64,000 nt of DNA from an uncultured Oleispira sp. (lineage in GTDB: Bacteria; Pseudomonadota; Gammaproteobacteria; Pseudomonadales; Oceanobacteraceae). The notes under the pieces are model-generated. The model saw only the letters and a list, made by a program, of their open reading frames with translations, did no database searches and was not told where the DNA came from. Every line of letters starts with the position of its first letter. The stretch's first letter is position 1. The stretch lies in contig CAJXUD010000006.1 in assembly GCA_913061415.1 (NCBI GenBank), positions 63,505-127,504 on the forward strand, read 5' to 3'. Of the stretch, positions 28,660 to 56,321 are shown in pieces. A program made the position numbers and the translations under genes.

Positions 28660-28686
28660 TAAAGTAATCCCAAACTGTGTCGTTAA
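28660..28686 (+). promoter_or_regulatory. Sigma28 promoter of the flagellin gene
   Basis: TAAAGTAA-N11-GTCGTTAA, about 64 nt before the ATG. Confidence 0.75.
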
Positions 28687-28749: not shown

Positions 28750-31212
28750 ATGCCACAAATTATAAATACCAACATTGCCTCGTTGAACGCACAGCGTAAC
28801 TTGGACAAATCACAGTCTTCAAACCAGCAAGCGTTACAACGCTTATCATCAGGTCTTCGCATTAACAGTGCAAAAGACGATGCAGCAGGTATGGCGATTT
28901 CTACACGCTTCACCTCTCAGATTAAAGGTCTGAACGTAGCAGTACGTAACGCAGGTGATGGTATCGCACTAGCACAAACCGCAGAAGGCGCATTGGGCTC
29001 AATGAATGAAAGCTTACAGCGTATTCGTGAGCTAGCCGTACAGTCTTCTAACGCAACCAACTCAGATGTTGACCGCGATGCACTTCAAGCAGAAGTAAGT
29101 CAGTTGGTTTCTGAGATCACGAGAACGTCTGAAGAAACTGATTTTAATGGTCGTAAGTTACTTGATGGTTCTTTCACGGCAAGCTTCCAAGTTGGTGCAA
29201 ATGCTGGCCAAACTATTGATGTTTCGATTGCTGAACTAACATCTGAGAAGTTGGGTTCTGATTCTCAGGCGGGTGTTTCTTCGCAGGGTAATAGTTCTAA
29301 GCTTGGAAATGGTGATCTTGTCATTAATGGTGAGAATATTCGAGCTTCTGTTTCTGGTGATGATCAATTATCGTTTTCTGGAAAAGAATACTCGGCTATT
29401 GCAAAGGTTGCGGCAATTAATGATTCTAGTGAGAAGACTGGCGTGACTGCAACAGTTGATGAAAACGTTGTTCTTGGTGCTGATATGTCAGATCAAGCTG
29501 CGATTACTCCAGATACAGCAACGATCACCTTGAATGGTGTTGATATAGCCTTGCAGAGCACCGCTAACTCCTCTGATGCCGATAAAGCAGCGACCCGTGG
29601 CTCCGTAATCCAAGCAATCAATGCTAAAGCCGAACAAACTGGCGTAATGGCTTCTGATGGTGGTAATGATGGTGGTGTTATTTTAACTGCTGCAGATGGT
29701 CGAAATGTTACATTAACATCTGACTCTGGTACGGATGATGTCAATGATTTAACAATTTTTGGATTGTCGGATTCAAATACAGCAGGTACTGCTGCCGTGC
29801 AGTCTCAAGCAGGCTTTACGCTAACTGCTGAAAATGCGAATACCAGTATTAACATCACTGGTGGTGATGATACAGGCAATGGTAATCTAGCGAATTCAGG
29901 CTTAGCGGCCGGTAATTATTCAGCTCAGACTGCTTTTACAAGCTCTACTAAGCAAGAAGTTGGTGGCGCAGATGCCGCAGCAACTACCATTAATTCTACA
30001 GCAGCTACGGCAGCCTTAGCAGTAACTCAAGCAGCGGCTTCTGGCGTAACAATTGCGCTTCCGGGTGCAGACACACTGGTTGCTATTCAAGCTGAATTTG
30101 ATGCAGCTGGATATGATGTAACGGTAGGAGCACTAACACAAGAGGGTGTGGCAGTTGCTTCTGGTGAAGCAAAAGCTTCTGAAAAACGCTTGGCGGATGG
30201 TGATTTAGTTATTAATGATGTTGTGATCAAAGCATCAAGTACTTTGGATGATACGGCATCCGATACCAGTGCGGCATCATCAGATGCAGCTGCTTCAGGT
30301 ATTTCCATTGCAGCCGCAATTAATAAGGCTTCTGATTCAACGGGTGTTACCGCTGAAGTTAATGCAACAGAGGTTGTAGGCGGCGCTAATGCTCGATCTG
30401 GGGCTGTAGGGCTGACGTTTGGTGCAACGGCTGGTGCGGTTGCTGCTGGGGATAGCATTACATTAACGGTGAATGGCGTAGATATTAGCCTTACAGAAAC
30501 TGCAGATTATGAGAAGAATAAGGCTGCCGCTATCACTGCGTTTAATGAAGTTTCTGGTCAAACGGGTATTGTTGCTACAGACAACGGACAATCACTTACC
30601 TTAACCGCTGCAGATGGTCGAAATATATCATTGTTTGCTGATGGTGGTGCTGGTGAGGCTATGACTGACTTAGGCACAAGTATAGAAAACTTTGGTCTTA
30701 ATGCATCAAACGTTGGCCAGAATACTGGGGCGACAGGTGTGAAAGCATATACTAACGCAAGTGGTGCTGAAACAACCTATTCAACGGTTTCCTTAACTTC
30801 TGCTTCAGCATTTGAAGTAAGCTTTGGTACTGGTGGGGCCGAGGGCCTATCAGATTCAGGCTTGGTTGCAGGTAAATTTGGTGGTGGTGAAGATGGTCAA
30901 GCCTTGGTTGATGTGGACATCTCAACAGTAGCTGGTGCTCAAGAAGCCTTGGTTGCCATTGATAATGCCATTGGCCAGGTAGCGAGCCAGCGAGCTGACT
31001 TAGGTGCGATCCAAAACCGTATGGAATCAACAGTTAGTAACTTGCAGATTTCGTCTGAAAATTTGAACGCGGCTAACTCGCGAATTCAAGATGCCGATTT
31101 CGCAGCAGAGACAGCAGAACTGCAACGTACTAACGTGTTACAGCAGGCAGGTATTTCAGTTCTAGCGCAAGCTAACGCATCAGGCCAGCAGGTTCTATCT
31201 CTTCTAGGATAA
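28750..31212 (+). CDS. fliC: Flagellin, large form (820 aa) with an internally duplicated variable region
   Basis: N-terminus [18 protein letters not shown]...[16 protein letters not shown] and C-terminus [33 protein letters not shown]. The central region contains two paralogous modules of about 150 aa. Confidence 0.95.
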
Positions 31213-31858: not shown

Positions 31859-34800
31859 ATGGCTGCTATTGAATCATTAGGGTTAGGCTCAGGGGTTTTA
31901 ACCAATGACTTGGTCGATAAGATTGTCGGGGCCGAGCGTGAAGCGGCGGATAAGCGCTTTGAACGTGAAGAAACGATTATCGATGCTCGCATTACTGCCT
32001 ATGGTGAAATTAAATCTCTATCGTCTACCCTACAAGTTGCTACCAGCGCACTTTCTTTACCGTCCACGTCGGGTTCAACCACAGCGTCGTCTTCTGATGA
32101 AGCTATTTTAACAACTGAAGCGTCTATTTTAGCCGAGCCAGGCACTTACAGTGTAGAGGTGTTAAATACCGCAAAAGCACACAGTGTGGTTACCGATGCG
32201 TACAGCAGTATTGATGAAATAATTGGTACGGGTGAAATTCAAATTACCTTTGGTGAAATTACTTATGATGGTACGGGTGGCTTTTTAAGTCAGGATGTTG
32301 ATCCTGCTAAAGGCGGCTCACCCATTGTGATTGACGATTCGAATAAAACATTGAGTGGTATTCGAGAAGCAATCAATAATGCGGACATTGGGGCAAAAGC
32401 ATCGATCATTAATGATGGTTCTGGTTATCGCTTAGTAATCACCTCTGAAGAAACCGGTGAAAATAATGCCATGCGCATTATGACCAAGGATGACTTGGGC
32501 GGCACAGCAACATCGGGATTGTCTTCTATTGCTTATAACGAAGTTCAAACCGGTGCTGGCACTATGTCAGAAACGGCAAAAGGTGAAGATGCATTATTGA
32601 AAGCCAATGGTCTCACCATCACTCGTGAATCAAATAGTATTCAAGAAGTTGTTCCTGGGGTGACATTAAATTTATTATCAGCCGACGTCGGTAAACCTAT
32701 TTCAATTGTAGTTGCTCCCGATACGGCAGGTATTCAAGAAAAAATTCAGGATTTTGTTAATGCTTATAATGAATTCAAAAAATTCTCTGATGACTTAACC
32801 TCGTACAATTCAGAAAGTGATCAGGCAGGTTTGTTATTAGGTGATTCGACAATTCGAGGGATTCAATCGCAAGTACGCTCTATGATCAGTCAACCAATCG
32901 CCGGTTTATCAGGTACTAAATACCGCTCATTAACCGAGCTGGGCGTGAATACAGATAAAAATAATGATTACCTTTTAGAGTTTGATCCGGCTGTTTTTGC
33001 AAAGGCGATACGAGAAGAACGTGATACCGTCGTTAGCATTATGTCTAAAAGTGGTGAAGCTACCGATTCACAAATTCGTTATGTGAATGACTCAATTAAT
33101 ACGCAGCCAGGCACGTATGGTATAGAAGTTACTCAACTTGCCACTCAGGCTACTTATTCGGGAGGCAGTGTTACGGGTTTAGATTTTTCTAGCCCTGTTA
33201 TGATTGATGGTAGTAACAATAATTTTAGTATTAATATCAATGGTACAACTGCTGCGATTGAATTAATTCAAGGGAGTTATGCTACGGGTGAAGAATTAGC
33301 CAAGCAAATCAGTTTTCAAATAAACAGTAATGATGCATTTAAAAGTCTTTCTTATGCGGTATCGACTAGCTATAGCGCTACCGATAAAAACTTTTCAATA
33401 ACGTCAAATAAATACGGCGCCGAATCACAAGTTTCTTTTACCAGTACCGATTCAAATACTGCCAATACTTTAGGGTTTAATACCACGGGTAAAGGTGCAT
33501 TTGATGCCGTTGCTTTAACAACACTGAACAGTGATGCATTTTTAGGAAAAGGTTCTACTACTCAGCCGGGTTCACGCACGGTTTTAGAAAGTAATGGTAT
33601 TAATTTTGCCACGAACAATGCGTCATTTTCTTTGGATATTGGTGGTGGTCCTGTTGCCGTTACGGTGAACTTGAATGCGGCGGGTAATGATCTAAACGGT
33701 GATAGTGATATTGGTAACCGTAAAGATACTCTACAGGCGATTCAAACCGCTATTGATGCAACTGCTTTGAACGGCGCTGTCATTGCCGACTTTGATGATA
33801 ATGGGTATTTAACCTTTACGACATCGGCTTTGGGTAGCAGTGAACAGATTGAAATTACCAGTGTCGGTAGCACAAGCAGTGATACGGCATTGGGTTTAAA
33901 AGCGGATCAGGGCGTACAAACCAATGGTGATGATCCTGGTTTAACGTTTGCATCGGCCACTGAGTTTAATATGGCTGTCGATGGTATTAGCACAACGACA
34001 AAGGTCAGCGTGCCATCGGGTACTTATTTAAGCGGTGCTGACTTAGCCACAGCGATTGAGTTGGCGATGGATACTGCTTTGGCGGCAGATCCTGCGTTTG
34101 TCGGATTAACCAAAGGTGGCGTGAGTAATATTGGAACACGCGATATTAGTGCTCCTATCGATTTCTCTACCAGTAATTCTGGATTTATGCTGAATGTGTC
34201 GGGTGTCGAAAAAGAAATTATTGTTAATGGTAATGACCCCGATAATATTGTGAATATTCAAGCGGCGTTAGATACCGCCTATGGCGCTGGAATTGTTTCC
34301 GCAAGTTTGGATGGTTCGGGTGTTAAGTTGTCGTCGGTAACGACGGGTCATAATGAATACATTGAAATTACGGCTGATGGGCGGGGTGCTATTAGTGATA
34401 CCAGTTCTGCCGTGACCAATATCACAACCGGTATTGATTTTAGTGGTGTGGGTGATAATGCAACTTTTACTTTAGCGGTTGATGGCGTTGATATTAACGT
34501 TGATGTGAACGGCGATGGTACTGCAGGTACGAATGATGCTGCATCCACGTTGAATATTGTGCAAAGTGCTGTTGATACGGCCTTGGTAGGCAGTGGGCAG
34601 TTCTCTGAAGGCGATGTGGTTGCCAAACTAGATGGTAGCGGTAATTTATATTTTGAAACGCTGGCTAAAAATGGCGTTAAAACGGCTGCAACTTATGGCT
34701 CGGGTGCGAGCATTGAAGTTAAAAATATCGATGCAAATGCTTCGGCTGACTTAGGCTTAGCTGCCAGTACCGTTTCTAATGGTTACGATACTTTTGGTTT

Positions 34801-35818
34801 CGATGAAACCCGACGTTACGGTTATGATTTAGAGGCTGATGTTGAATACAAGTACGATCCAGTCACCGATTTGGGTTCGTTTAAAATCAATGTTGGTGGC
34901 AATGCTACCGAAGTCTCTTTTAGTGATATTGATGCCGCCGCCATCTCGCTAATCGGGCTGCAGGATGTCAGTATTTATACGCCAACCGTCGCACAAGGAA
35001 AGAACATTGAAGGCAAAATTAATGGCGTTGAGGCTAAAGGCAATGGCCAATATTTGTCAGCAACAGATGGTAATAAAAAAGCCAGTAATGGGTATTACAT
35101 TGCAAATTCCGCGGCTGATTTTACCGCTGGAGTTAATTTAGACGCAACCAATAATAGCTTTACAATTGAAGTTGATGGTGTCGAAAGAACGATTAGTCTG
35201 GCTCAGCCAAGTTCTTATAACTCGGGTGCTGGCTTAGCCGCCGCGTTACAGAAAGCGATTAATGACGATGTCACATTTAAAGCAGATGGTATTGAAGTTA
35301 AGGTCGAATATGACGATGACCCTGCGTCTTTTTCTTATCAAAAATTCGGCATTATTTCAGGCTCTACGGGGGCGTCCTCATCGGTTAAAATGGTGGACGT
35401 ACCTGGGCCAACTTCTGCAATCTTTGGTTTTATCAACGGACAAGCGGATGGCCAGACGGGTAAAGCCCAAGAAGGTCAGATTGATCCATCAAGTGGTGTG
35501 CGCTTAAAAATTACTGGAGGCGCGTTAGGGGATCGTGGCTCTGTTACTTATATTTCGGGCTTTGCTGATCAATTAAATGCTAGTTTGTTATCGCTGCTCG
35601 ATAATAAGACGGGTTTAATTACCACAAAACAAAATGCGTTAGATAATGATAAAGTGCAATTAGAAGAGGAGAGAGAGCGACTTGATACGCGAATGTCTGC
35701 ACAAGAAGCGCGTCTTAAGAGTCAGTTTTTATATAATGATGCGATCGTATCAAAGTTAAATTCAACGTCTGATTTTATAACCCAGCAGTTTGAGGCAATG
35801 AATAACTCTAAGAAGTAA
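31859..35818 (+). CDS. fliD: Filament cap protein FliD (HAP2), giant form (1319 aa)
   Basis: N-terminus MAAIESLGLGSGVLTNDLVDKIV...ITAYGEIKS and C-terminus ...LDTRMSAQEARLKSQFLYNDAIVSKLNSTSDFITQQF. The central part carries at least 7 repeat modules. Confidence 0.93.
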   Translation: MAAIESLGLGSGVLTNDLVDKIVGAEREAADKRFEREETIIDARITAYGEIKSLSSTLQVATSALSLPSTSGSTTASSSDEAILTTEASILAEPGTYSVEVLNTAKAHSVVTDAYSSIDEIIGTGEIQITFGEITYDGTGGFLSQDVDPAKGGSPIVIDDSNKTLSGIREAINNADIGAKASIINDGSGYRLVITSEETGENNAMRIMTKDDLGGTATSGLSSIAYNEVQTGAGTMSETAKGEDALLKANGLTITRESNSIQEVVPGVTLNLLSADVGKPISIVVAPDTAGIQEKIQDFVNAYNEFKKFSDDLTSYNSESDQAGLLLGDSTIRGIQSQVRSMISQPIAGLSGTKYRSLTELGVNTDKNNDYLLEFDPAVFAKAIREERDTVVSIMSKSGEATDSQIRYVNDSINTQPGTYGIEVTQLATQATYSGGSVTGLDFSSPVMIDGSNNNFSININGTTAAIELIQGSYATGEELAKQISFQINSNDAFKSLSYAVSTSYSATDKNFSITSNKYGAESQVSFTSTDSNTANTLGFNTTGKGAFDAVALTTLNSDAFLGKGSTTQPGSRTVLESNGINFATNNASFSLDIGGGPVAVTVNLNAAGNDLNGDSDIGNRKDTLQAIQTAIDATALNGAVIADFDDNGYLTFTTSALGSSEQIEITSVGSTSSDTALGLKADQGVQTNGDDPGLTFASATEFNMAVDGISTTTKVSVPSGTYLSGADLATAIELAMDTALAADPAFVGLTKGGVSNIGTRDISAPIDFSTSNSGFMLNVSGVEKEIIVNGNDPDNIVNIQAALDTAYGAGIVSASLDGSGVKLSSVTTGHNEYIEITADGRGAISDTSSAVTNITTGIDFSGVGDNATFTLAVDGVDINVDVNGDGTAGTNDAASTLNIVQSAVDTALVGSGQFSEGDVVAKLDGSGNLYFETLAKNGVKTAATYGSGASIEVKNIDANASADLGLAASTVSNGYDTFGFDETRRYGYDLEADVEYKYDPVTDLGSFKINVGGNATEVSFSDIDAAAISLIGLQDVSIYTPTVAQGKNIEGKINGVEAKGNGQYLSATDGNKKASNGYYIANSAADFTAGVNLDATNNSFTIEVDGVERTISLAQPSSYNSGAGLAAALQKAINDDVTFKADGIEVKVEYDDDPASFSYQKFGIISGSTGASSSVKMVDVPGPTSAIFGFINGQADGQTGKAQEGQIDPSSGVRLKITGGALGDRGSVTYISGFADQLNASLLSLLDNKTGLITTKQNALDNDKVQLEEERERLDTRMSAQEARLKSQFLYNDAIVSKLNSTSDFITQQFEAMNNSKK

Positions 35819-35923
35819 TGGCTTAGTGGTTATTCGTTGTTTAAAAGCTTTAGATGAAATTATCAAAATTGATGTTTTAAAAATGTTGTACGCAGTTATT
35901 AAAAACTCATAAATCACTTATTG

Positions 35924-35958
35924 AAAAGGCCTTTGGTATTTAGTCAAAGGCCTTTTTT
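35924..35958. terminator. Bidirectional rho-independent terminator between convergent fliD and the methyltransferase gene
   Basis: aaaaggcctttg-gtatttagt-caaaggcctttt has 12-bp perfect arms, an A-run before and a T-run after. Confidence 0.8.
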
Positions 35959-36012
35959 ATTGCAGATTCTATTGATAATTAATGCAGATTTAAATATTAG
36001 TTTTAGATCATT

Positions 36013-38103
36013 TTATAAAAACTTAATATTTGATTGCTTACGGCAATAAAATTGATACATTCCTGCAAAAATCCCCTCATGCTCTTGTTCAACGGTATGC
36101 CAGTTATCTAAGGTATTTTTATCGTATAAGTCGCCTACCTGCTGCTTGAATGCATTTAACGCATTTGGGGTAGGTAACATACCGATAAAGTCCATGTGAT
36201 TGCTTGCTAACAAATCTGTAATGCCTTGCGGTGTAAATTGATGCTCTTGCTCATGAAAAATCAGATCACGGCAGTTACTCATACTATAAAAATCATGTGA
36301 ATTAACTATATCCGACCAATTACCAGGTATTTGATTCATTAACAGGGCTTGGCGTAATAGACGCTGATTGATATCGGCCCCTGTTTGCTGTTTGTTTTTA
36401 GCCACTATTTCTCTCAAAGTGATCACTTGCTTACGTGCTGATTGGCTGTAGAGCGCAATTTTCATAACGCCTGTAGGAGATAACAATTTATTCAAACTTT
36501 TTAAGCCCGCTTCTGGATGCTCCATGTGGTGCAATACCCCAGAGCATTCAATAACATCAAACAGCATTGGAAAGTTATTAAATTCTAAAATATCTGCTTG
36601 AATAAATTGGATGTTATTAACACCGTATTTTTCGGCCTGTTTTTTTGCATAAGCTAAGGCGCGGCCACTTAAATCAATGGCTACAATGTTTAAATCATTG
36701 AAATAACTCGCAAGGCGAATAGCTTGTCGGCCCGTACCACAGCCGGCAACTAAAACATTGAGCTTTTGCTTACCTTGCCAATGACTTAAATTTAAATCAG
36801 GAAAATTCTTAAGTAGAGCACTCTGGTAACTACTTGCGGTATTAAAACCAATATCTTTCCAACGAGGATAAGGGTTGTCTTCGTATTGATTTTTGACTCG
36901 TTCAGATATTACATTTCTATTAGCTGGGTTGCGGTTAGACCAGAAGGGTAATTTTTTCGCGAGTTGAATTTCATCATTGCGAGTATTAATTGCGTACTTA
37001 ACAATGTCTTTTAAATTGCTATGCTCAAGTGCTTGTTGTACGGTCTCACTGTTAAAGACGGTTGCAATGCTTGTAGTCGATAAGTCTTGGTATTGAGCCA
37101 ATATAATGACCGCAGGCGCAATATCGTCTAGCTGCCATTGTGTTTCTTCAGTGATTTGTAATAACAGCTGCTCTAGGCTTTCAATTATTTTTTCTTCATC
37201 GGATGTGATTGGCCAGACATATTCGTTCAATTGCGCTTGTATTGCCATGCTGTGAGCGAAGTTTAAATGGCTGCTAGGAATCGTCATATCTTGAACGGTA
37301 TTAAATAACATTGTTTGTCGAAGGCTAATAAAAAGTCGTTCTAATAACGCATCGCAAAAATGAAAATGTTGTAAGCTACTGAGTAAGAGTGGATCACCAG
37401 CAATTTGGTCGAATGAAAGTGGTGTGCTGGCTTCATTAATTTGAAGTTTATGATGTAATAGTGTTGTTGTCAGGTTTCTCAGTAATGAGTGGTCGACATT
37501 TTCAAACTCTAAGTAACGTAATACGTTTGCTTCTAATTCTTCGGAATAAAAATCCGCATTGATATAAGACGCAGATTCGAACAACTTGTTTCGAATATAA
37601 GGATCATGTGCTTCTGTCTTGATCAGTTCTTGATACATCTGAAAAGCCGGTACGTATTTGCCTTGCTCTAAATAGGTGTATGCTAATAATGATGCCGAGC
37701 GAGTTGCTACCTTAGAAATCTTCAGTGAAGCATTAAGATATTTTTCTGCTTGCTCTAACTGCCTAAGTGCTAACGCAATGTGACCGGCTGTGTATAAAAC
37801 GGCTGGACTATCATTGCTTATACTGAGTGCACGATTAATCAGTGTTTGCGCTTGGTTTGGCTTATCTCGGAACAACTCAATACGTGCAGCTAAGTTTAAA
37901 CCTTTGATGCCTGTTGGGTTGATATCGAGCGCTTTTTTAACCTTATACAAGGTCGCATCCAATAAGCCATTATTCAGCGTACTGTCATATTCAGGTGATT
38001 GTAGTTTGGCAAAGTCATAGCTCGCTTCTTGCACCCATAACGAATAAGCGTCGAGGTCAATTGGGTGAGCCGTTTTTGCATCAGAGGCGTGTAAAAAGTT
38101 CAT
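36013..38103 (-). CDS. TPR-repeat protein fused to a class I SAM-dependent methyltransferase
   Basis: The N-terminal ~220 aa have TPR-like periodicity (A..Y...G.Y..A). The C-terminal Rossmann motif I is LNVLVAGCGTGRQAIRLA, followed by VAIDLS, FIQADI and FDVIECSGVLHHM. It is the only minus-strand gene inside the fliC-fliS block. Confidence 0.8.
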   Translation of the reverse strand: MNFLHASDAKTAHPIDLDAYSLWVQEASYDFAKLQSPEYDSTLNNGLLDATLYKVKKALDINPTGIKGLNLAARIELFRDKPNQAQTLINRALSISNDSPAVLYTAGHIALALRQLEQAEKYLNASLKISKVATRSASLLAYTYLEQGKYVPAFQMYQELIKTEAHDPYIRNKLFESASYINADFYSEELEANVLRYLEFENVDHSLLRNLTTTLLHHKLQINEASTPLSFDQIAGDPLLLSSLQHFHFCDALLERLFISLRQTMLFNTVQDMTIPSSHLNFAHSMAIQAQLNEYVWPITSDEEKIIESLEQLLLQITEETQWQLDDIAPAVIILAQYQDLSTTSIATVFNSETVQQALEHSNLKDIVKYAINTRNDEIQLAKKLPFWSNRNPANRNVISERVKNQYEDNPYPRWKDIGFNTASSYQSALLKNFPDLNLSHWQGKQKLNVLVAGCGTGRQAIRLASYFNDLNIVAIDLSGRALAYAKKQAEKYGVNNIQFIQADILEFNNFPMLFDVIECSGVLHHMEHPEAGLKSLNKLLSPTGVMKIALYSQSARKQVITLREIVAKNKQQTGADINQRLLRQALLMNQIPGNWSDIVNSHDFYSMSNCRDLIFHEQEHQFTPQGITDLLASNHMDFIGMLPTPNALNAFKQQVGDLYDKNTLDNWHTVEQEHEGIFAGMYQFYCRKQSNIKFL

Positions 38104-38140
38104 GGTTCAATACCAAATTTATTTCTAGTTAATGAGACTA

Positions 38141-38156
38141 AGCAAGCCTAATGCCA
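38141..38156 (-). promoter_or_regulatory. Sigma54 promoter of the TPR-methyltransferase gene
   Basis: The minus strand reads TGGCAT-N5-TTGCT, 38 nt upstream of the ATG at 38103. Confidence 0.75.
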
Positions 38157-38277
38157 ATATAAGAAAGCTATATTTTTCAATGGGTTAGGGTCTTTATGAC
38201 GTGTTGGATGTTTAGATTGCCGCTTTTAGCGGCAGCGACTTACCGTTAATTCCTTTATAAGTAAGCAAATTAATTAT

Positions 38278-38304
38278 TAAAGTATTCTCAACTCTGGCCG
38301 CCAT
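38278..38304 (+). promoter_or_regulatory. Possible sigma28 promoter of fliS
   Basis: TAAAGTAT-N11-GCCGCCAT. The -10 element is degenerate relative to GCCGATAA. Confidence 0.45.
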
Positions 38305-38340
38305 AAGTAAGGAGAGAAGAATCAATTAAGAGGCTGAGTT

Positions 38341-38796
38341 ATGTATAGCAAAGGTGCAAATCAATACCGCCAAGTCGGTATGACATCAGAAGTAGAAGGT
38401 GCTGACCCACATCGTTTGATTCAGATGTTAATGGAAGGTGCGCTGACGCGGATGTCACAAGCTAAAAATATGATTGATGATAAAAACTATGAAGGCAAAG
38501 CTAAGTTGCTGGGCCGAGTAATGGAAATCATCGCGACCTTACAATCAAGTCTTGATCATGATCATGGTGGTGAAATTTCATCAAACCTTGAACGTTTGTA
38601 CGACTATATGAATCGTCGTTTATTAGAGGCTTCTAGTGCAAATGACACATTAATGATTGATGAAGTCATGAAGTTGCTGTTAGAAGTGAAATCAGGCTGG
38701 GATGGTATTCGTGCAGAGTATCTAACTTCAACCAGCAAAAGTGTCAATAAAAGCGCCAATATCAGCGAGTCTTCTCTAAAGTCTTTGACTGTATAA
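38341..38796 (+). CDS. fliS: Flagellin-specific chaperone FliS
   Basis: YRQVGMTSEVEGADPHRLIQMLMEGAL and a four-helix FliS pattern. It has a C-terminal Ser/Lys-rich extension of about 25 aa. Confidence 0.9.
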   Translation: MYSKGANQYRQVGMTSEVEGADPHRLIQMLMEGALTRMSQAKNMIDDKNYEGKAKLLGRVMEIIATLQSSLDHDHGGEISSNLERLYDYMNRRLLEASSANDTLMIDEVMKLLLEVKSGWDGIRAEYLTSTSKSVNKSANISESSLKSLTV

Positions 38797-38952
38797 AGAC
38801 TAATCAAATACTGTAAAAAAACAGCTTTTTTAATGATAATCATCTTTAAGCACTCTTTAGGGCTTAAAGATGCTTGTCATCTTGCGTCAAAATCAGCTAT
38901 AAAAGCCTACAGAGAAATAAATTATAAAAATAAAAATATGAGTGCCAGAAGT

Positions 38953-38981
38953 TTGACCTATCAGTGAATAGCTACTTTACT
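38953..38981 (+). promoter_or_regulatory. Possible sigma70 promoter of fleQ
   Basis: TTGACC-N17-TTTACT, about 80 nt before fleQ. Only 4 of 6 positions match in the -10. Confidence 0.3.
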
Positions 38982-39061
38982 ATTAACAGCAAAGTCAAAA
39001 TGATGGCGGGGCCTGGCTTGGATGCTAGTGATAATAAATTTTAAATTAAGGCATGTATCCC

Positions 39062-40525
39062 ATGTGGAGAGAAATTAAGGTTCTGTTGATTGACGATGAT
39101 GTTCAGCGGAGTCATGATCTTAAAGTTGTTTTAGACTTTCTTGGGGAAGAAGCGATTACAGTGAATTCGGATACTTGGTGCAAACAAGTAGAAGCGGAAA
39201 TTACTGAACGCAATGATATTTCGGCTGTCCTTCTAGGCAGTTGTACGAATATTGGTCTGTCTAAAATGGTTGAAGATATTATCGCTTGGGATAATGGCGC
39301 ACCTATTTTGTATTTTGGTGATGAATCCACAGACGCTGTTCCAGAAAATTTACGCCGTGCGATTTTAGCCAATGTAAAAATGCCACCTAGTTATAACAAC
39401 TTATTAGATAGCCTACATCGTTGCCAAGTTTATCGTGAACAGTTCACTCACAACCGAAGCCGCGCTGAGCGCCGAGATGTTCAGTTGTTTAGAAGCCTTG
39501 TGGGTACTAGCCGACAGATTCAGACCGTTCGTGAACTTATTATGCAAGTCGCTGATAAAGATGTGAGCGTATTGATTACGGGTGAATCGGGTACGGGTAA
39601 AGAAGTGGTTGCTCGTAACCTGCATTATCATTCCAATCGTAAATCGGGTCCATTTGTACCTGTTAACTGTGGTGCGATTCCTGCAGAACTTTTAGAAAGT
39701 GAATTATTTGGCCATGAAAAAGGCGCGTTCACGGGGGCGATTACTACACGCCAAGGCCGTTTTGAAATGGCCGAAGGTGGTACACTTTTCTTAGACGAAA
39801 TTGGTGATATGCCTTTAAACATGCAAGTTAAGATATTGCGTGTTTTACAAGAACATACGTATGAGCGGGTGGGTGGTACTAAGACCATGAAAACCAACGT
39901 TCGTATTATTGCTGCGACCCACAAAAATTTAGAGCAGATGATTGATCGTGAAATCTTCCGTGAAGATTTGTACTACCGATTGAATGTTTTTCCTATCGAG
40001 ATGCCTGCATTACGCGATCGAGTTGAAGATTTACCTTTATTATTAAACGAATTAATTTCTCGTATGGAGTATGAAAAACGAGGTTCTATTCGCTTTAACT
40101 CAGCGGCTATTATGTCGCTATGCAGTCATGAATGGCATGGTAACGTTCGCGAACTCGCCAATTTGGTAGAGCGATTAGCCATTCTTCACCCTTATGGTGT
40201 GGTGGGTGTTAATGAATTACCGAAGAAATTCCGTCACGTTGATGAAACCGATGAAAATGGCATGATGCAAGCGCCAGTTTTAGCCGATGTGACACAAGTA
40301 GAAAACGGTTTGGTTGGAATTGACTCACCAGCACTACTGCCGGTTAATGGTTTGGATTTGAAAGAATATCTTAATGATTTGGAAAAATCGTTAATTCAGC
40401 AAGCGCTTGATGATGCCACGGGTGTGGTAGCACGAGCTGCTGAGAAGTTAAAAATTCGTCGTACGACATTAGTAGAAAAAATGCGTAAGTACGATATAAG
40501 CCGTAAAGAAAAAGAAACGGCGTAA
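39062..40525 (+). CDS. fleQ: Sigma54-dependent flagellar master regulator FleQ/FlrA
   Basis: The N-terminus [30 protein letters not shown] resembles P. aeruginosa FleQ as I remember it. AAA+ motifs GESGTGKE and [15 protein letters not shown] are present, with a C-terminal Fis-type HTH. Confidence 0.93.
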
Positions 40526-40822: not shown

Positions 40823-42115
40823 ATGGCTAGCGTCGCTTTATTAGATACAGCGCAAAAAAATCTTTCAAGTCGAGAACACTTGTCGCAAGAGCAGCTTAAC
40901 CGTGAGCAGCTAAAAGATGCCTTTAACTTATTCAGTTCGATGTCGGATCGGCTTTCGCAGAGCTATGAATTTTTAGAATCTAAAGTAGAGGAGCTTAGTG
41001 GGGAACTTGCAGAAGTTTCTTATCAGCGAATGCAAGAGTTGGCTGAAAAGGAGCGGATTGCAGAGCGTCTTGAAAGTTTATTGCACATGCTGCCTGGTGG
41101 GATTTTATTATTAGATGGTGATGGGCGTATTCGTGAGTGCAACCCAGCAGCATCGGCGCTATTACTGCCTGACGCAGTTAAGCGCAATGCAAATAATGAT
41201 GTGAATAAACAAGCGAATAGCGACTCGTTATTAGGTGAACTATGGCGCGATGTGATTAAAACAAGCTTTAGCCCGAAGCCCGATGATGGGCACGAAATAT
41301 CTTTAGTCGATGGCCGCCGAGTGAGTTTACAAACCGCATCGCTAGGCTCCGAGCCAGGGCAAATCATTTTAATCACAGATCAAACAGAAACACGAAAGCT
41401 GCAAGAAAGTTTAAGCCAGCACCAGCGCTTATCGTCGATGGGGAATATGGTGGCGTCATTGGCTCATCAAATTAGAACGCCCCTAAGCGCAGCCATGATT
41501 TATGGCGAGCATTTGCAAAGTTCAGAACTGCAGCCAGAGCAGCGAGAAAAATTCGCCAATAAAATGATGCAAAGACTGCATCACTTAGAGCATCAAATTC
41601 GTGACATGCTTATTTTCGCTCGCGGAGAAGCCCCTCTTAATGATGATCTTGCTTTATCGCAGTTATTGCATGATTGGCAAGAAGCGCTAGAAATTCCTTT
41701 GCAACAACACCGTGCGACCTGTGAGTTTGAGGTTAATAAAGTAGATGTTCATATTCACTGCAATCGAGATGCATTAATTGGCGCTCTGATGAATTTGGTG
41801 AATAACGCTTTAGAAGCCTGTGGACAAGATGCCAAGTTAAAAGTACGGGTGAGCGTAAATGTTCAGTATCAGGTGAATATCGAAATTGAAGATAATGGCC
41901 CAGGGTTTACCAGTGCGATTAACGATCAGATCTTACAACCATTTTTTACGACCAAAAGTAACGGCACAGGCTTAGGGCTTGCGGTTGTGCAGGCGATTGC
42001 GCGAGCGCATTACGGTGAGTTTTCGATTCGTTCTGCTGGTGAAGTCGGTGCTATTGCCAGCTTCCGCTTACCAGCACAGCCGATTGCAAAAGATAAAACA
42101 AACATCAGTCATTAA
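40823..42115 (+). CDS. fleS: Flagellar two-component sensor kinase FleS/FlrB
   Basis: PAS-like region, H-box SLAHQIRTPLSAA, N-box LVNNALEA, and G-boxes EDNGPGF and GTGLGLAV. No TM segments. Confidence 0.9.
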   Translation: MASVALLDTAQKNLSSREHLSQEQLNREQLKDAFNLFSSMSDRLSQSYEFLESKVEELSGELAEVSYQRMQELAEKERIAERLESLLHMLPGGILLLDGDGRIRECNPAASALLLPDAVKRNANNDVNKQANSDSLLGELWRDVIKTSFSPKPDDGHEISLVDGRRVSLQTASLGSEPGQIILITDQTETRKLQESLSQHQRLSSMGNMVASLAHQIRTPLSAAMIYGEHLQSSELQPEQREKFANKMMQRLHHLEHQIRDMLIFARGEAPLNDDLALSQLLHDWQEALEIPLQQHRATCEFEVNKVDVHIHCNRDALIGALMNLVNNALEACGQDAKLKVRVSVNVQYQVNIEIEDNGPGFTSAINDQILQPFFTTKSNGTGLGLAVVQAIARAHYGEFSIRSAGEVGAIASFRLPAQPIAKDKTNISH

Positions 42116-42203: not shown

Positions 42204-43589
42204 ATGAAAATTCTAGTGGTTGAAGATGATCCGAACTTAAGAGAAGCCATTGTTGATTCTTTGATGATGAAGGGCCATCAAGTGCATGAAGTTTGTAATG
42301 GCGTAGAGGCCGTTAAGGTTATTGCTCAAACCTCGTTGGATATTGTATTGAGTGATATCAATATGCCGCAAATGGATGGGCTGCAATTATTGGCGCATGT
42401 TAAAAAAAATCAGCCGTGGTTGCCGATGATCTTAATGACGGCATATGGCGATGTTGGCCAAGCGGTTAAAGCGATGCAGTTGGGGGCTAACGATTATTTA
42501 ATGAAGCCGTTTGAAGTTCAAGAACTGCTTTCGTTACTTAATAAATACCAAACGACAGCTGCTGTGGTGGAAGAGGATAAGCCGATCGCGGAATCGGCGG
42601 TAAGTAAAAACTTATTCCGAGTGGCCGAGAAGGTCGCGGCAACGGATTCTACCGTTTTGATTTCAGGAGAAAGCGGAACCGGTAAAGAAGTATTGGCACG
42701 CTATATTCATCAGCATTCACAGCGAGTTGGACAGCCGTTTGTGGCTATTAACTGCGCGGCCATTCCAGAGAATATGCTGGAGGCGATGTTGTTTGGTTAT
42801 GAAAAAGGTGCCTTTACTGGCGCTTATGCCGCTACACCAGGAAAGTTTGAGCAAGCCAATGGCGGCACGTTATTGCTAGACGAAATAACAGAAATGGATA
42901 TTTCGCTGCAAGCTAAGTTATTACGTGTTTTGCAAGAGCAGCAGGTTGAACGCTTAGGTGGCAAAAAGGTCATCGATCTTGATGTGCGAATTATTGCGAC
43001 CACTAACCGTGAGCTCGCAGATTATGTGGCGGACGGGCATTTTCGTGAAGATTTATATTATCGCCTAAGTGTATTTCCATTGAACTGGATGCCATTACGC
43101 GAACGGATTGAAGATATAAAACCGCTGACGCAATTACTGTTGCAAAAACATGCGGGAAAAATGAAAAAACCGGTACCGAATCTCAATGCCGAGGCACAGA
43201 AAAAATTATTATCACACCCATGGCCAGGTAATGTCCGAGAGTTAGATAATACCGTACAGCGCGCGTTGATTATGCAGCAAGGAGTTGAGATTACTGCTGA
43301 AGATTTAGTCTTAACCCCTGTGCCGAAAAATCGTCGCTTTGACATGCCAGAAACGTCAGAAAATATTGTAAGTAGTTTATCTGACGCTTCAGTGGTTGAT
43401 AATGCAACGGGTAGCGCGTTAGGCAGTGATTTGAAACAACGAGAAGTTGAATTAATTGTTCAGGCATTAAACGAAGAGCCGAGCCGTAAAGAAGCAGCTG
43501 AAAGGTTAGGTATTAGCCCACGCACCTTACGTTATAAGGTTGCCAAGCTGCGTGAAGAGGGAATCGATATAGAAGCGCAGCTGGTATAA
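42204..43589 (+). CDS. fleR: Sigma54-dependent response regulator FleR/FlrC
   Basis: Receiver (KILVVEDD...SDINMPQMDG...KP), AAA+ motifs ([18 protein letters not shown]) and a C-terminal HTH. Confidence 0.93.
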   Translation: MKILVVEDDPNLREAIVDSLMMKGHQVHEVCNGVEAVKVIAQTSLDIVLSDINMPQMDGLQLLAHVKKNQPWLPMILMTAYGDVGQAVKAMQLGANDYLMKPFEVQELLSLLNKYQTTAAVVEEDKPIAESAVSKNLFRVAEKVAATDSTVLISGESGTGKEVLARYIHQHSQRVGQPFVAINCAAIPENMLEAMLFGYEKGAFTGAYAATPGKFEQANGGTLLLDEITEMDISLQAKLLRVLQEQQVERLGGKKVIDLDVRIIATTNRELADYVADGHFREDLYYRLSVFPLNWMPLRERIEDIKPLTQLLLQKHAGKMKKPVPNLNAEAQKKLLSHPWPGNVRELDNTVQRALIMQQGVEITAEDLVLTPVPKNRRFDMPETSENIVSSLSDASVVDNATGSALGSDLKQREVELIVQALNEEPSRKEAAERLGISPRTLRYKVAKLREEGIDIEAQLV

Positions 43590-43652: not shown

Positions 43653-43746
43653 AAAAGGAAAGATAGATGGCAAAAGTGCCAAAAAAATATAGATGAAGTT
43701 GATTCAAAAGCGTCAACTTCACCAATAAAAGGTCGAGGTGTTGGTT

Positions 43747-44361
43747 ATGGTTAATCGTGCGGATATCAACTCTGTTTTATTACAGATGCGTCAAGTGCGC
43801 CAGCAAATGCAAACCGCAGATCCAGCGTCTGCAGCGGGTCTGCAAAACTCGATTCAACCAACCCAGCAAAATGCTTCCGTAGGGGCTCCGCAAAATAGTT
43901 TTGCGGCTCAGCTTCAGCAGCAAAGAAGTCAGCTAGATCCTTCGATGATGACATCACCTAGCGCGTCTAATTTTAATACGCCTTCTGCTAATAGCCTGAA
44001 TAGCTCAAACATCAATCCGGCAAGTATGACGCCTTCTCAGTTTCGTAATGAACTTACTCAACAAGATTTGATCAACCAAACCGCTGCTTTTGAAACACGC
44101 CCAGGTAATCAGATGAATTTATCTTCATCGTCGTCGACGCCCAGTATTGGTGAAATGATGGGTAATGCGGTTAATCAGGTTAATGATACGCAAATGCACG
44201 CAGGTAGCTTGAGCACTCGATATACGCAGGGCGATCCTAATATCGATCTACCAGAAGTGATGGTAGCGATGCAAAAATCCAGTGTGTCTTTCCAAGCAAT
44301 GTCGCAAGTACGCAATAAGTTATTAGAAGCGTATAAAGACATTATGAACATGCCAGTATAG
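43747..44361 (+). CDS. fliE: MS-ring/rod adaptor FliE, enlarged (about 204 aa)
   Basis: The C-terminus GDPNIDLPEVMVAMQKSSVSFQAMSQVRNKLLEAYKDIMNMPV is canonical and the N-terminal helix is INSVLLQMRQVRQQ. A Q/S/N/P-rich insert of about 100 aa lies between them. ATG at 43747 follows GAGG. Confidence 0.88.
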   Translation: MVNRADINSVLLQMRQVRQQMQTADPASAAGLQNSIQPTQQNASVGAPQNSFAAQLQQQRSQLDPSMMTSPSASNFNTPSANSLNSSNINPASMTPSQFRNELTQQDLINQTAAFETRPGNQMNLSSSSSTPSIGEMMGNAVNQVNDTQMHAGSLSTRYTQGDPNIDLPEVMVAMQKSSVSFQAMSQVRNKLLEAYKDIMNMPV

Positions 44362-44375
44362 TGGGGCATTCTTAA

Positions 44376-46091
44376 ATGGCTAATGCAGTTGCTAACCCAG
44401 AACAAAATAAAGCCGCGGATGATGCGTCATCAGACTTGATGGCCCAAGACACTGACGAACAAAATGAGGGTAATCTTCATCCTGTCGTCGCCGGTTTTAA
44501 TAAGCTATCCATCGTTCGACAAGCGGCTTTGTTAGGTGGATTTGCTTTAGCGATTGCGCTGACAATTGCCATCTTTATTTGGTCGAAAGAACCTAACTAC
44601 AAACCTCTGATCAATCGCATGCAGGATTATAATGCACAAGAAATTGTTGAGGTTCTGCAGCGCGAAGGCTTTGAATTTGAAATAGATCCTACCTCGCAGG
44701 TATTGATGGTACGTGCCGACGAATTGCATGATGCGCGGTTAAAGCTTGCCGCTGCCAGTTTGATTGATGACAAAACGGTCGGGCTTGAGCTGTTGGATAA
44801 TGAATCCAATCTTGGGACTAGCCATTTTATTGAAACAGCGCGCTATCGTCGTGGGTTAGAAGGCGAACTTGCGAGAACAATTGCCAGTATTCAGGCGGTA
44901 AGAAATGCACGAGTGCATCTTGCGATACCCAAGCAATCGGTTTTTGTTCGAGATCATCGCCAGCCAAGAGCATCGGTGTTTTTAGAACTCTATGCCGGTG
45001 CCAACTTGCACAAAGATCAAGTTGAGGCGATTGTGAATCTGGTTTCTTCTTCGATTAGCGAAATGGATAAAGGGTCTGTTTCGGTGGTCGATCAAAAGGG
45101 CAACCTGCTATCGAAGATTGAGCATAATAATCAAGAGCTATTAGCGACAAAGCAATTGCAATATACCGAGCGTGTTGAAGACTCAATCAGCACCCGTGTA
45201 AATAGTATTTTAAAACCTGTATTAGGCATTGAAAATTATAAGGCTGAGGTATCGGCGGATATCGACTTTACGGTCGTGGAGCAATCTGAAGAAACATTTA
45301 ATCCTGATCTAATAGCGATTCGCAGCGAACAGCTAATCAACGAACAAACCGTGAGTGGTGCAGAAGGCGGTATTCCGGGTGCTTTAACAAATCAGCCTCC
45401 AGGGCAAGCTGAAGCCCCAGAGCAGATCGACCCAGCGACTGGTTTACCTATGAATCCAATGGATAAACGCAGCGAAACTACTCGAAATTATGAAGTTGAT
45501 CGTACCTTAAGTTATAAACAGCAGCAGGTTGGGCGTATTAATCGCTTAACCGTCGCGGTCGTGATTAATGACAAGCAGTTGATGAATGCTGAAACTGGCG
45601 AGATGGAATTTTCTCCTTGGAAAGAGAACGACTTAGAACGTTTAGAAATATTAGTGAAAGATGCGGTTGGCTTTAATGCCGCACGGGGTGATAGTGTTAA
45701 TGTCATTAACTCGCCGTTTATGGGTAAGAGCGAAATTGAACTGGGCAGCCCTGAGTTTTGGAGTCAGCCTTGGTTCTGGGAAATTATGAAGCAGGTATTA
45801 GCAGGGCTGTTCTTGTTAGTACTGATTTTTGGTGTCATTCGTCCTACCATTCATAGTATTGCCAATAAAGGCCGTAGTGATGAAGACGGCATGGGAATGG
45901 ACGACTTCTCAGATTCTAGTGATGAGTTTGATGAAGATCGAGTGACCCTGTCTGGTGCTGATGATTTCTTATTACCCGGTGCTTCAGACGGCTTTGAACG
46001 CCAGCTGGATGCATTGAAAGGTCTGATTGCCGAGGACCCAGCACGTGTTGCCCAGGTGCTGATTCAATGGATTAACGCTGAAGATGAATAA
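44376..46091 (+). CDS. fliF: MS-ring protein FliF
   Basis: 571 aa. The TM helix ALLGGFALAIALTIAIFIW, a YscJ/FliF-type periplasmic region, a second TM and an acidic C-terminus give FliF topology. It sits between fliE and fliG. Confidence 0.93.
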   Translation: MANAVANPEQNKAADDASSDLMAQDTDEQNEGNLHPVVAGFNKLSIVRQAALLGGFALAIALTIAIFIWSKEPNYKPLINRMQDYNAQEIVEVLQREGFEFEIDPTSQVLMVRADELHDARLKLAAASLIDDKTVGLELLDNESNLGTSHFIETARYRRGLEGELARTIASIQAVRNARVHLAIPKQSVFVRDHRQPRASVFLELYAGANLHKDQVEAIVNLVSSSISEMDKGSVSVVDQKGNLLSKIEHNNQELLATKQLQYTERVEDSISTRVNSILKPVLGIENYKAEVSADIDFTVVEQSEETFNPDLIAIRSEQLINEQTVSGAEGGIPGALTNQPPGQAEAPEQIDPATGLPMNPMDKRSETTRNYEVDRTLSYKQQQVGRINRLTVAVVINDKQLMNAETGEMEFSPWKENDLERLEILVKDAVGFNAARGDSVNVINSPFMGKSEIELGSPEFWSQPWFWEIMKQVLAGLFLLVLIFGVIRPTIHSIANKGRSDEDGMGMDDFSDSSDEFDEDRVTLSGADDFLLPGASDGFERQLDALKGLIAEDPARVAQVLIQWINAEDE

Positions 46092-46114
46092 CGTGCATAA
46101 GGTAAAGCAATCAC

Positions 46115-47155: not shown

Positions 47156-47169
47156 ACCATTGAATAGCG

Positions 47170-49694: not shown

Positions 49695-50136
49695 GCAAAG
49701 AATCAAGCGTCTTGGCTTCGTACTTAAAATGGCCGCAGATAAAGAGCAGCAAGATTTGCAAGTATGGGGTCAGTACCAACAGAAACTGGAGCAAGAAATA
49801 CAGAAACTCACTCAATTAGAACAATATATGGCTGAGTACCGCAACAGCTTAACTAGCCAGCACGCGGCCCCGATTCAAGGTGGACAGATTCAAAATACCA
49901 TTGCCTTTATTGAACAGATTAAAGATGCCAGTGGCCATCAAGAGCAACAGATTAACTTAGTTCGCCAGCAAGCTGATGGCGCTAAGCGAGTTTATTTAGA
50001 TGCTCGCGCCAAAGCTGAGGCATTACGTAAGTTAATCGAAAAACTTGCCCTGCAAGCCTCTGCGCTAGAAGATAAGCAAGATCAAAAAATGATGGATGAG
50101 TTTGCCGCGCGCAGTGCTCGTAACCGCCAAGTCTAA
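49687..50136 (+). CDS. fliJ: Flagellar export stalk protein FliJ
   Basis: 149-aa coiled-coil protein that overlaps the fliI end. It occupies the conserved position. Confidence 0.8.
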
Positions 50137-50603: not shown

Positions 50604-50972
50604 ATGCCAATGGCAACTATTTTAGCGGTAGACGATTCAACCTCGATGCGACAGATGGTCTCGTTTACCTTAAAGGGTGCAGGCTATGACGTGAGAGAGG
50701 CATGTGATGGAAGTGAAGCCCTAGACATTGCCAAAACTCAGCAGTTTGATTTGGTCTTATCCGATGTGAATATGCCTGTGATGGATGGTATTCAATTGGT
50801 AACGGAGCTGCGTAAATTGGGCGAGTATAAATTTGTCCCCATCTTGATGCTCACAACCGAATCTTCTGGCGATACAAAAATGGCCGGAAAGAAAGCCGGA
50901 GCAACCGGGTGGATAGTAAAACCTTTTAATCCGGACCAGTTATTAAATACAATTAAAAAAGTGTTGGGTTAA
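50604..50972 (+). CDS. cheY: CheY-like response regulator
   Basis: ILAVDDS...LVLSDVNMPVMDG...MLTTE...KP. The alternative ATG at 50610 has better RBS spacing. Confidence 0.9.
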   Translation: MPMATILAVDDSTSMRQMVSFTLKGAGYDVREACDGSEALDIAKTQQFDLVLSDVNMPVMDGIQLVTELRKLGEYKFVPILMLTTESSGDTKMAGKKAGATGWIVKPFNPDQLLNTIKKVLG

Positions 50973-50977
50973 TTATT

Positions 50978-56312: not shown

Positions 56313-56321
56313 TTAATCTTT

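Follow-up and report, generated by a model that had tools for sequence, protein, structure and literature searches.

A TPR-fused, PKMT-like methyltransferase gene between fliD and fliS of an Oleispira polar-flagellum cluster is a candidate for sigma54-controlled modification of large flagellins

Why should a polar-flagellum gene cluster carry, between the genes for the filament cap and the flagellin export chaperone, an oppositely oriented gene for a methyltransferase? The question is raised by a stretch of 64,000 nucleotides from an uncultured Oleispira sp. (contig CAJXUD010000006.1, positions 63,505 to 127,504), the whole of which we refer to as the window. It holds the polar-flagellum cluster of an Oleispira-like gammaproteobacterium. 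The gene in question, whose product has its nearest homologues, at 70-91% identity, in Oleispira metagenome-assembled genomes (MAGs) and O. antarctica, is the following:

36013-38103, minus strand: methyltransferase open reading frame (ORF), 696 amino acids (aa) plus stop, ATG start, from the ORF list.

This is the sole large minus-strand ORF from flgB (13438) to the end of the flagellar/chemotaxis block. A preliminary description of the window had reported it as an opposite-strand, antisense gene between fliD and fliS; its position and orientation stand, but it is convergent with fliD, divergent from fliS and overlaps neither, so that "antisense" applies to its orientation only. With moderate confidence, we propose that it encodes a cytoplasmic methyltransferase of the FleR/sigma54-dependent class III tier, which would act on flagellin or another filament-stage protein before export.

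The protein is built from three parts, and Pfam families score above their gathering scores in both its N-terminal repeats and its C-terminal catalytic domain, in agreement with the architecture initially described, namely TPR-like repeats followed by a class I methyltransferase fold:

37570-37971, minus strand: tetratricopeptide repeat (TPR) region, residues ~45-178, eight helices forming about four repeats (Pfam and structural model).
36919-37551, minus strand: all-helical middle domain, residues ~185-395, no Pfam family.
36016-36906, minus strand: Rv2067c/PKMT-like seven-beta-strand S-adenosylmethionine (SAM, or AdoMet) methyltransferase domain, residues ~400-696 (Pfam, PDB sequence matches and Foldseek).

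In the first of these, TPR_19, TPR_14, TPR_2 and TPR_8 match residues ~55-180, and there are further profile matches to consensus TPR proteins and to the TPRs of OGT. Four Pfam models exceed their gathering scores at residues 445-570: Methyltransf_31 (73 bits against a cutoff of 27), Methyltransf_25 (69), Methyltransf_12 (68) and Methyltransf_11 (60). An AlphaFold2 model, for which 48 homologues served as input, has a predicted local distance difference test score (pLDDT) of 88.3 and a predicted template modelling score (pTM) of 0.83; in it, residues 17-390 are wholly helical, and beta and alpha elements alternate across residues 448-689 with a pLDDT of ~90. The C-terminal domain thus combines the features of a class I SAM methyltransferase: a GxGxG motif I, an acidic residue (D477) at the end of beta2, where class I enzymes bind the SAM ribose, a profile match over threshold and a Rossmann-like fold. 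NCBIfam also gives matches to the small-molecule and RNA methylases UbiG, BioC, CmoM and HemK, which we rejected as a basis for naming the protein since they are sub-threshold and reflect the common Rossmann core.

The motifs of the methyltransferase domain are an N-terminal YxxNPYPRW, the GCGTG of motif I, D477 and ECSGVLHH. Motif I (VLVAGCGTGRQAIRLA) occupies residues 450-465; its VLVAGCGTGR segment (450-459) and D477, which aligns with the AdoMet-binding Asp of RtPKMT2, are invariant in the 48 homologues, as are the SAM-binding residues generally. The full-length homologues share 40-91% identity, and even at the 40% end motif I, D477, D504 and ECSGVLHH vary little or not at all; because of this conservation, the TPR-fused methyltransferase is very probably active as an enzyme, as judged from its sequence. 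The middle domain is kept along with the methyltransferase domain throughout the wider family, with distant homologues aligning from residue ~190-235 onward, and has invariant motifs of its own (ADFYSxELE, LLHHK and NEYVW).

Which methyltransferase family the C-terminal domain resembles, a question left by the preliminary description, is answered alike by sequence and by fold: Rv2067c and the Rickettsia enzymes PKMT1 and PKMT2 come out on top, not small-molecule methylases. The best PDB sequence match is Rv2067c (8hkr; E 2.7e-16 to 7e-17, or 6e-24 with the family profile), in an alignment that extends ~90 residues past the Rossmann core, and the next are Rickettsia PKMT2/PKMT1 (5doo, 6e-8; 5dnk, 2e-6). 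In a Foldseek search against the PDB, 8hkr, 5dpl, 5do0, 5dnk and 5doo fill ranks 1-9 (E 1e-11 to 1e-8), with small-molecule, sugar and tRNA methylases lower, the sugar methyltransferases AtmM and RebM among them; identity is ~23% to Rv2067c and 16-21% to the Rickettsia PKMTs (Foldseek). Foldseek also returns OGT and SPINDLY over the whole length of the protein, because of the common layout of TPRs plus a catalytic domain. From these matches, the product is most likely an Rv2067c/PKMT-type SAM-dependent protein methyltransferase and, more specifically, a lysine N-methyltransferase. In the model, a four-helix insert (558-615) follows beta5 (strand 541-553), a two-helix insert (646-674) separates beta6 (637-642) from beta7 (682-689), and the protein stops 7 residues past this last beta strand, with no domain C-terminal to the catalytic core.

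The upstream region of the gene links it to the flagellar hierarchy through a promoter and an enhancer-like element, the latter present in part at the promoters of three hook-stage operons:

38141-38156, minus strand: sigma54 (-24/-12) promoter TGGCATTAGGCTTGCT, an exact pattern match that starts 53 bp upstream of the ATG.
38217-38234, no strand assigned: inverted repeat TTGCCGCT-TTT-AGCGGCA, putative FleR/FlrC enhancer, 62-78 bp upstream of the promoter.
13291-13349, plus strand: pair of TTGCCGCT sites ahead of the flgB sigma54 promoter (13411-13426).
18789-18796, minus strand: AGCGGCAA site upstream of the flgF sigma54 promoter (18924-18939).
22865-22871, minus strand: GCGGCAA site (7-mer) upstream of the flgJ sigma54-like promoter (22945-22960).

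Exact matches to TGGCAY-N5-TTGCW number three in the 64 kb, all of them intergenic and pointing at the downstream gene, and the promoter of the methyltransferase gene, TGGCAT-N5-TTGCT, is among them. When one mismatch is allowed, the window contains 14 matches against 7.0 ± 2.5 expected, nine of them ahead of flagellar operons, including flgB, flgF, flgJ, fleS, fliE and fliK. We then compared the upstream regions of the window and of 23 orthologous loci, which are related to one another, so that the counts are not independent; they represent Oleispira, Thalassolituus, Bermanella, Saccharospirillum, Bacterioplanes, Gynuella, Oceanobacter, Oceaniserpentilla, Parathalassolituus and Natronospirillum. 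The sigma54 promoter, already pointed out in the preliminary description, has an equivalent (TGGCAC-N5-xTGCW, at most 300 bp from the start) in 21 of these 24 loci, from more than ten Oceanospirillales genera, and the intergenic DNA is otherwise diverged around the kept sigma54 site and half-sites.

The inverted repeat is the window's single perfect palindrome of its kind; a palindrome search allowing up to 3 mismatches found no second copy in any promoter region, and only the half-site is common to the other promoters. Its 8-mer occurs seven times in the 64 kb, four of the copies being intergenic: two at flgB (13291 and 13342), one at flgF (18789) and one at the methyltransferase gene (38217). 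Further TTGCCG copies lie upstream of flgF at 18833 and 18846. The earlier claim that the inverted pair repeats an element of the flgB, flgF and flgJ promoters is therefore borne out, as the 8-mer at flgB and flgF and as the 7-mer at flgJ. Neither the 7-mer nor the 8-mer is found ahead of the fleS, fliE or flgA promoters of the window, and since the element is common to flgB, flgF and flgJ and absent from those three, the assignment of the gene to a hook-stage class fits. TTGCCG, within the inverted repeat, is the reverse complement of CGGCAA; published work on the flagellar cluster of Pseudomonas putida names this hexamer as the motif proposed to be bound by FlrC, and finds it conserved in both PflgB and PflgF. 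Across the orthologues, GCGGCA/TGCCGC lies 30-160 bp upstream of the sigma54 site in 15 of the 21 promoters, mostly at -66 to -92, whereas only 12% of 130-bp windows drawn at random from these loci contain such a site. The window itself encodes two sigma54 enhancer-binding proteins, which we assign as FleQ-like and FleR-like from the gene order fleQ-fleS-fleR:

40823-42115: fleS-like kinase gene, beside the FleR-like gene.
42204-43589, plus strand: FleR/FlrC-like sigma54-dependent response regulator, matched by models of receiver-AAA+ enhancer-binding proteins (NtrC, FlbD, FlgR), all below equivalog cut-offs.

Is the gene tied to the flagellum beyond this one genome? A scan of one genome per species gave 593 relatives, of which the best 80 loci were taken with 10-kb flanks and their flagellar neighbours called by tblastn with the window's flagellar proteins. 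Throughout the 24 Oceanospirillales loci (L001-L014, L016-L017, L019-L023, L026, L027 and L054), fliS is immediately upstream and divergent, with fleQ present in nearly all. On the other side, fliD comes after the methyltransferase gene in just a part of these loci: Thalassolituus has ung, lysS and prfB between the two, and in Saccharospirillum alexandrii and Parathalassolituus the downstream genes are unrelated. Because fliS is constant while fliD is often replaced, the conserved unit is the divergent methyltransferase-fliS pair with its promoter region. As a separate observation, in Thalassolituus alkanivorans (L006:11982-15239) ung, lysS and prfB, together with a 145-aa ORF, appear to have been inserted before fliD, splitting the filament module; these genes were read from translations and not family-scanned.

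In four distant loci with other arrangements, the homologue adjoins fliC: an uncultured Pseudomonadales MAG (L015), Pseudoteredinibacter (L018), an Azotimanducaceae MAG (L034) and Thiocystis violacea (L050). The first of these (L015:11964-17534) has the homologue between fliC and a nonulosonic-acid island (PIG-L, WbqC, DegT, hexapeptide transferase and NeuB), a slot that is usually held by Maf-type flagellin glycosyltransferases, and in Thiocystis a PseB-like dehydratase gene is found near it. All 11 complete neighbouring flagellins are large (718, 721, 833, 841, 847, 938, 1061, 1062, 1300, 1306 and 2003 aa), FliD in these loci measures 800-1324 aa, and a giant FliD is present in 12 orthologous loci. 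The orthologues are thus distributed non-randomly with respect to flagellar loci, as the preliminary description had anticipated, with fliS beside the gene in 24 of 24 Oceanospirillales loci, fliC in four lineages, large flagellins and a mostly giant FliD. The genera in which giant flagellins have been reported overlap with those found here; the paper describing them is silent on methylation and on this gene. At 2003 aa and 0.6% lysine, the flagellin ORF of the Azotimanducaceae locus (L034:7848-8984 and surroundings) is far above the "giant" flagellins described so far.

The candidate substrates are encoded in the window on either side of the gene:

28750-31212, plus strand: fliC, 820-aa flagellin, matched by NCBIfam flagellin models with scores under the cut-offs.
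31859-35818, plus strand: fliD, giant 1319-aa filament cap, matched by NCBIfam FliD models below curated cut-offs.
38341-38796, plus strand: fliS, flagellin export chaperone, TIGR00208 over cutoff.

The N-terminal ~400 residues of FliD are those that align to the NCBIfam FliD models. The axial proteins are oversized as a group, with FlgE at 1205 aa (15140-18757), FlgK at 992 aa (24057-27035), FliC at 820 aa and FliD at 1319 aa, and all four are without cysteine. FliC contains 20 lysines (2.4%), FliD 4.2% lysine, and FlgE 7 lysines in 1205 aa. We regard the fliC product as most likely the substrate, with FliD as the alternative, and since the conserved neighbours are filament genes (fliS and fliC), we favour flagellin over the hook as the target.

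Two further elements flank the gene:

35923-35957, no strand assigned: hairpin terminator between the convergent fliD and methyltransferase genes, found by folding.
38278-38304, plus strand: sigma28-like promoter TAAAGT-N13-GCCGCCAT for the divergent fliS, found by pattern scan.

The hairpin folds on both strands, with -17.7 kcal/mol on the plus strand (z = -3.6) and -16.1 kcal/mol on the minus strand (z = -4.2), and was missed by a sigma70/terminator scan because its loop exceeds 8 nt. Its U tail is U6 on the fliD strand vs U4 on the methyltransferase strand, so that termination looks strong on the fliD side and weaker on that of the methyltransferase; the terminator earlier said to be common to both genes is there, with a U-tract that is good only for fliD. 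Sigma28-like sites (TAAAGT-N13/14-GxCGxxAx) are found for fliC (28660-28686), for fliS (38278-38304) and for a small ORF at 10144-10476 (site at 10526, minus strand) that is likely flgM. With such a site directly ahead of it, fliS seems to have its own late promoter, apart from fliD; in P. putida, PfliS has been found to be FliA-dependent.

Put together, these elements suggest the following course of events. FleQ would switch on fleSR, and phosphorylated FleR (FlrC-type) would bind the TTGCCGCT/AGCGGCA inverted repeat at 38217-38234 and activate the sigma54 promoter at 38141-38156 along with the class III flgB, flgF and flgJ operons, the methyltransferase transcript stopping at the hairpin common to fliD. 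From class III FleR/sigma54 timing vs sigma28 timing it would follow that the enzyme is on hand before sigma28-driven flagellin and FliS are made. The TPR and helical N-terminal half may then recruit its target, for which the large flagellin is the likeliest candidate, perhaps in a FliS-bound form, and the C-terminal domain may methylate side chains of this target ahead of flagellar type III export. What we observe is the ORF with its domains and closest relatives, the promoter and enhancer motifs with their conservation, and the synteny; what we infer is that the gene depends on FleR, which protein it acts on, that lysine is modified and that the enzyme dimerises. The preliminary description had proposed a candidate flagellar protein methyltransferase expressed with the hook-stage genes; the predictions of that hypothesis which can be followed in silico were borne out.

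Several observations weigh against a dedicated flagellin methyltransferase. In about 50 of the 80 fetched loci, those from Prochlorococcus, Thalassospira, Geobacter and Gemmatimonas among them, the 10-kb flanks are free of flagellar genes and the neighbours are mixed, and since this is true of most fetched family members, the fold alone does not imply a flagellar role. The family is large, an exhaustive search at E<=1e-30 giving ~2,900 clusters at 50% identity. The earlier label "flagellum-specific" thus holds for the fliS- and fliC-linked subset but not for the wider family, which is mostly non-flagellar. The C-terminal domain that completes the substrate trough in Rv2067c and PKMT1/2 is missing, and in the 5doo alignment the AdoMet-contacting His of PKMT1/2 (His146/His118), the His of their CHGV motif, aligns with Ser521 of ECSGVLHH. 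The neighbouring flagellins are lysine-poor (0.6-3.1% overall, 2.4% in the window FliC), class III timing would also fit hook or junction proteins, and two of the fliC-adjacent homologues lie near genes for sugar synthesis.

As to the family itself, its core (residues ~230-690) is always C-terminal in the ~2,900 clusters, with N-terminal extensions that differ in length. A neighbour-joining tree of the 80 homologues is star-like at depth and compatible with both ancestral and recurrent flagellar linkage; the fliC-adjacent homologues fall at two or three separate places in this poorly resolved tree. One non-flagellar neighbourhood is of interest in its own right: in Prochlorococcus sp. MIT 0916 (L051:5107-13850), a non-flagellated organism, the homologue is flanked by two more TPR proteins and a 2-oxoglutarate-Fe(II) oxygenase, which hints at a different protein-modification cassette.

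The alternative that survives best, although we consider it unlikely, keeps the enzyme as a flagellar protein methyltransferase and changes its substrate to giant FlgE, FlgK, FlgL or FliD, or to the chaperone FliS. The FlrC-type element common to the flgB, flgF and flgJ operons matches hook-stage expression, the gene lies tail to tail with giant fliD and head to head with fliS, and FliD is richer in lysine than FliC (4.2% vs 2.4%). However, FlgE offers just 7 lysines in 1205 aa, many genera lose the fliD linkage yet keep that to fliS, and in four other lineages the neighbour is fliC.

Somewhat more doubtful is a reading in which flagellin is indeed modified, but in which the methyl group goes to a flagellin-linked glycan or a nucleotide-sugar precursor, the TPR half holding flagellin meanwhile. 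It is kept alive because the homologue adjoins nonulosonic-acid genes in two lineages, beside the island of L015 and near the PseB-like dehydratase gene of L050, and methylated flagellin glycans are known in Shewanella, which gives it a precedent. Against this, neither nonulosonic-acid nor maf nor glycosyltransferase genes, whose absence near the flagellin gene had been noted before, turned up among the Pfam- and NCBIfam-scanned ORFs and in the gene order of the 64-kb window (ORFs such as those in 9644-13286 and 43738-50136 being outside the scan), so its scanned parts hold no glycosylation gene. In L011, L012 and L006, moreover, housekeeping genes and not sugar genes lie downstream of the methyltransferase gene, and the nearest solved relatives modify protein lysines, with AtmM and RebM ranking lower.

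It is improbable, in our judgement, that the gene has no flagellar function at all and encodes a general protein or small-molecule methyltransferase at a rearrangement-prone cluster edge, behind promoter-like motifs that are fortuitous. This would suit the mostly non-flagellar family, which includes non-motile Prochlorococcus, the position of the gene at the point where the cluster splits in Thalassolituus, Saccharospirillum and Parathalassolituus, and the NCBIfam matches to UbiG, BioC and CmoM, all of them sub-threshold. It is countered by the sigma54 site and FlrC-type half-sites, kept over more than 10 genera despite diverged intergenic DNA, by the invariant adjacency of fliS, and by the occurrence of fliC-adjacent homologues at two or three positions, albeit in a poorly resolved tree. 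Very improbable is a protein whose methyltransferase domain is catalytically irrelevant and whose main task is to assist flagellar export substrates, as a TPR scaffold or in the manner of a chaperone. This reading finds an echo in a weak, sub-threshold NCBIfam likeness between residues 99-166 and SctY, a TPR chaperone of type III secretion, but is opposed by motif I, D477, D504, ECSGVLHH and many other methyltransferase-domain residues that are invariant or almost invariant in the 48 homologues, a pattern that argues for a conserved enzyme.

We therefore return to a FleR/sigma54 class III methyltransferase acting on a filament-stage protein as the favoured reading. A bolder version can be offered tentatively: that a TPR-guided, FliB-independent, PKMT-type methyltransferase under FleR/sigma54 control may serve specifically to mature large and giant flagellins, having been co-inherited with them in gammaproteobacterial lineages (Oceanospirillales, a Pseudoteredinibacter genome, the Azotimanducaceae MAG and Thiocystis), and that the ~2,900-cluster family, with its N-terminal repeat array, helical domain and C-terminal PKMT-like domain, may consist of substrate-specific bacterial protein methyltransferases in which the repeat array chooses the target.

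The remainder of the window provides the setting for the gene. Products of flgB, flgF, flgJ, flgK and fliS pass NCBIfam cut-offs, and the giant flgE (1205 aa) is likewise confirmed. GC content in the methyltransferase region is 38-39% vs 38-47% nearby, a profile that shows no clear sign of horizontal acquisition, and an Rfam scan of 35500-39100 gave nothing over noise (two matches, E 0.36 and 0.72). The listed flgB ORF has its first ATG only 12 bp past the end of the flgB sigma54 promoter (13411-13426), and FlgB family models align from residue ~12-15 of this ORF; for both reasons, the true start codon is probably further downstream. A 100-aa ORF (22513-22815) lies between flgI and flgJ, directly upstream of the flgJ sigma54-like promoter. 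Inside the flagellar cluster, between an unscanned ORF (49687-50136) and fliK, lies a full chemotaxis set (50604-60980) comprising CheY, CheA, CheW, a methyl-accepting chemotaxis protein with a PAS domain, CheR, CheD and CheB, after which come an HsbA-like STAS protein and an HsbR-like protein (response regulator, PP2C and kinase). At the left end (35-5552), a copper-resistance group (multicopper oxidase fragment, CopB, cupredoxin and a P-type ATPase with an HMA domain) has nothing to do with the methyltransferase finding.

Neither the catalytic family nor an architecture with TPRs for recruitment is new. What is new here is the combination of TPRs with a PKMT-like domain, membership of the flagellar regulon and the association with large flagellins, and our literature searches found no paper on a TPR-fused PKMT-like methyltransferase at a flagellar locus. 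Few systems of bacterial lysine methylation of surface fibres are known (FliB-flagellin, PKMT1/2-OmpB and KmtA-AtaA), and to our knowledge the enzyme for flagellin methylation is mostly unknown outside species that carry FliB. The gene is a concrete candidate from another enzyme family, with a sigma54 promoter and an FlrC-type enhancer as a regulatory hook, and it is strikingly associated with the large to giant flagellins that marine oil-degrading Oceanospirillales carry for reasons still unexplained. If the proposal is right, class III of the polar-flagellum hierarchy would come to include a modification enzyme, the maturation of giant flagellins would become accessible to study, and a function could be annotated for a large family of TPR-methyltransferase fusions that is so far uncharacterised.

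How does the proposed enzyme compare with known systems? FliB is a Cys-rich [4Fe-4S] enzyme, and the proposed role resembles that of Salmonella FliB in flagellin lysine methylation and in the position of the gene beside filament genes. The preliminary description held FliB to be unrelated, which agrees with what we find: unlike FliB, the window protein has no FliB-type Pfam match and its 5 Cys (positions 250, 455, 520, 611 and 687) are scattered and form no cluster, and no FliB-type family is among the best 25 of 36 Pfam matches (E<=1) or the best 25 of 63 NCBIfam matches. The Shewanella flagellin methylase is reportedly a FliB analogue, and flagellin methylation known so far has been ascribed to FliB-type enzymes.

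Rv2067c of M. tuberculosis belongs to the class I protein-lysine methyltransferases and trimethylates K79 of free histone H3, and its helical inserts at beta5-alpha5 and beta6-beta7 form a dimerisation domain which, with the catalytic domain, makes the substrate trough. The window protein has the same seven-beta-strand core with motif I and the xGVLHH motif, which its ECSGVLHH resembles instead of the CHGV of the PKMTs, and, in the predicted model only, the four-helix insert after beta5 and the two-helix insert between beta6 and beta7. Rv2067c, however, is 407 aa long, has a ~100-aa C-terminal domain, is without TPRs, and is secreted to target a host protein, whereas the window protein stops right behind beta7 and has TPRs and a helical domain in the ~400 residues of its N-terminal part.

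With Rickettsia PKMT1/PKMT2 and Acinetobacter KmtA it shares homologous AdoMet-binding and dimerisation domains, the Asp being kept as D477. These enzymes methylate many lysines of very large surface proteins (OmpB for PKMT1/2, AtaA for KmtA) in the cytoplasm before export, a logic parallel to that proposed here for giant flagellin. The PKMTs have middle and C-terminal domains that are missing in the window protein, and they lack both TPRs and flagellar linkage.

In Pseudomonas and Vibrio models, fliS comes directly after fliD, and we know of no modification enzyme in their FleR/FlrC regulon. The regulatory region of the methyltransferase gene is built like the FleR/FlrC class III promoters of these genera (flgBCDE and flgFGHIJKL), with a sigma54 -24/-12 promoter and upstream CGGCAA-type sites. 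TPR-fused flagellin glycosyltransferases are known in Caulobacter (FlmG), Listeria (GmaR) and Pseudomonas (FgtA), and like these, and like eukaryotic OGT and SPINDLY, the window protein joins an N-terminal TPR array, which would recruit its protein substrate, to a C-terminal modifying enzyme; in those proteins, the catalytic domain is a glycosyltransferase and not a methyltransferase, so that the analogy lies in the architecture, while the catalytic parts are not homologous.

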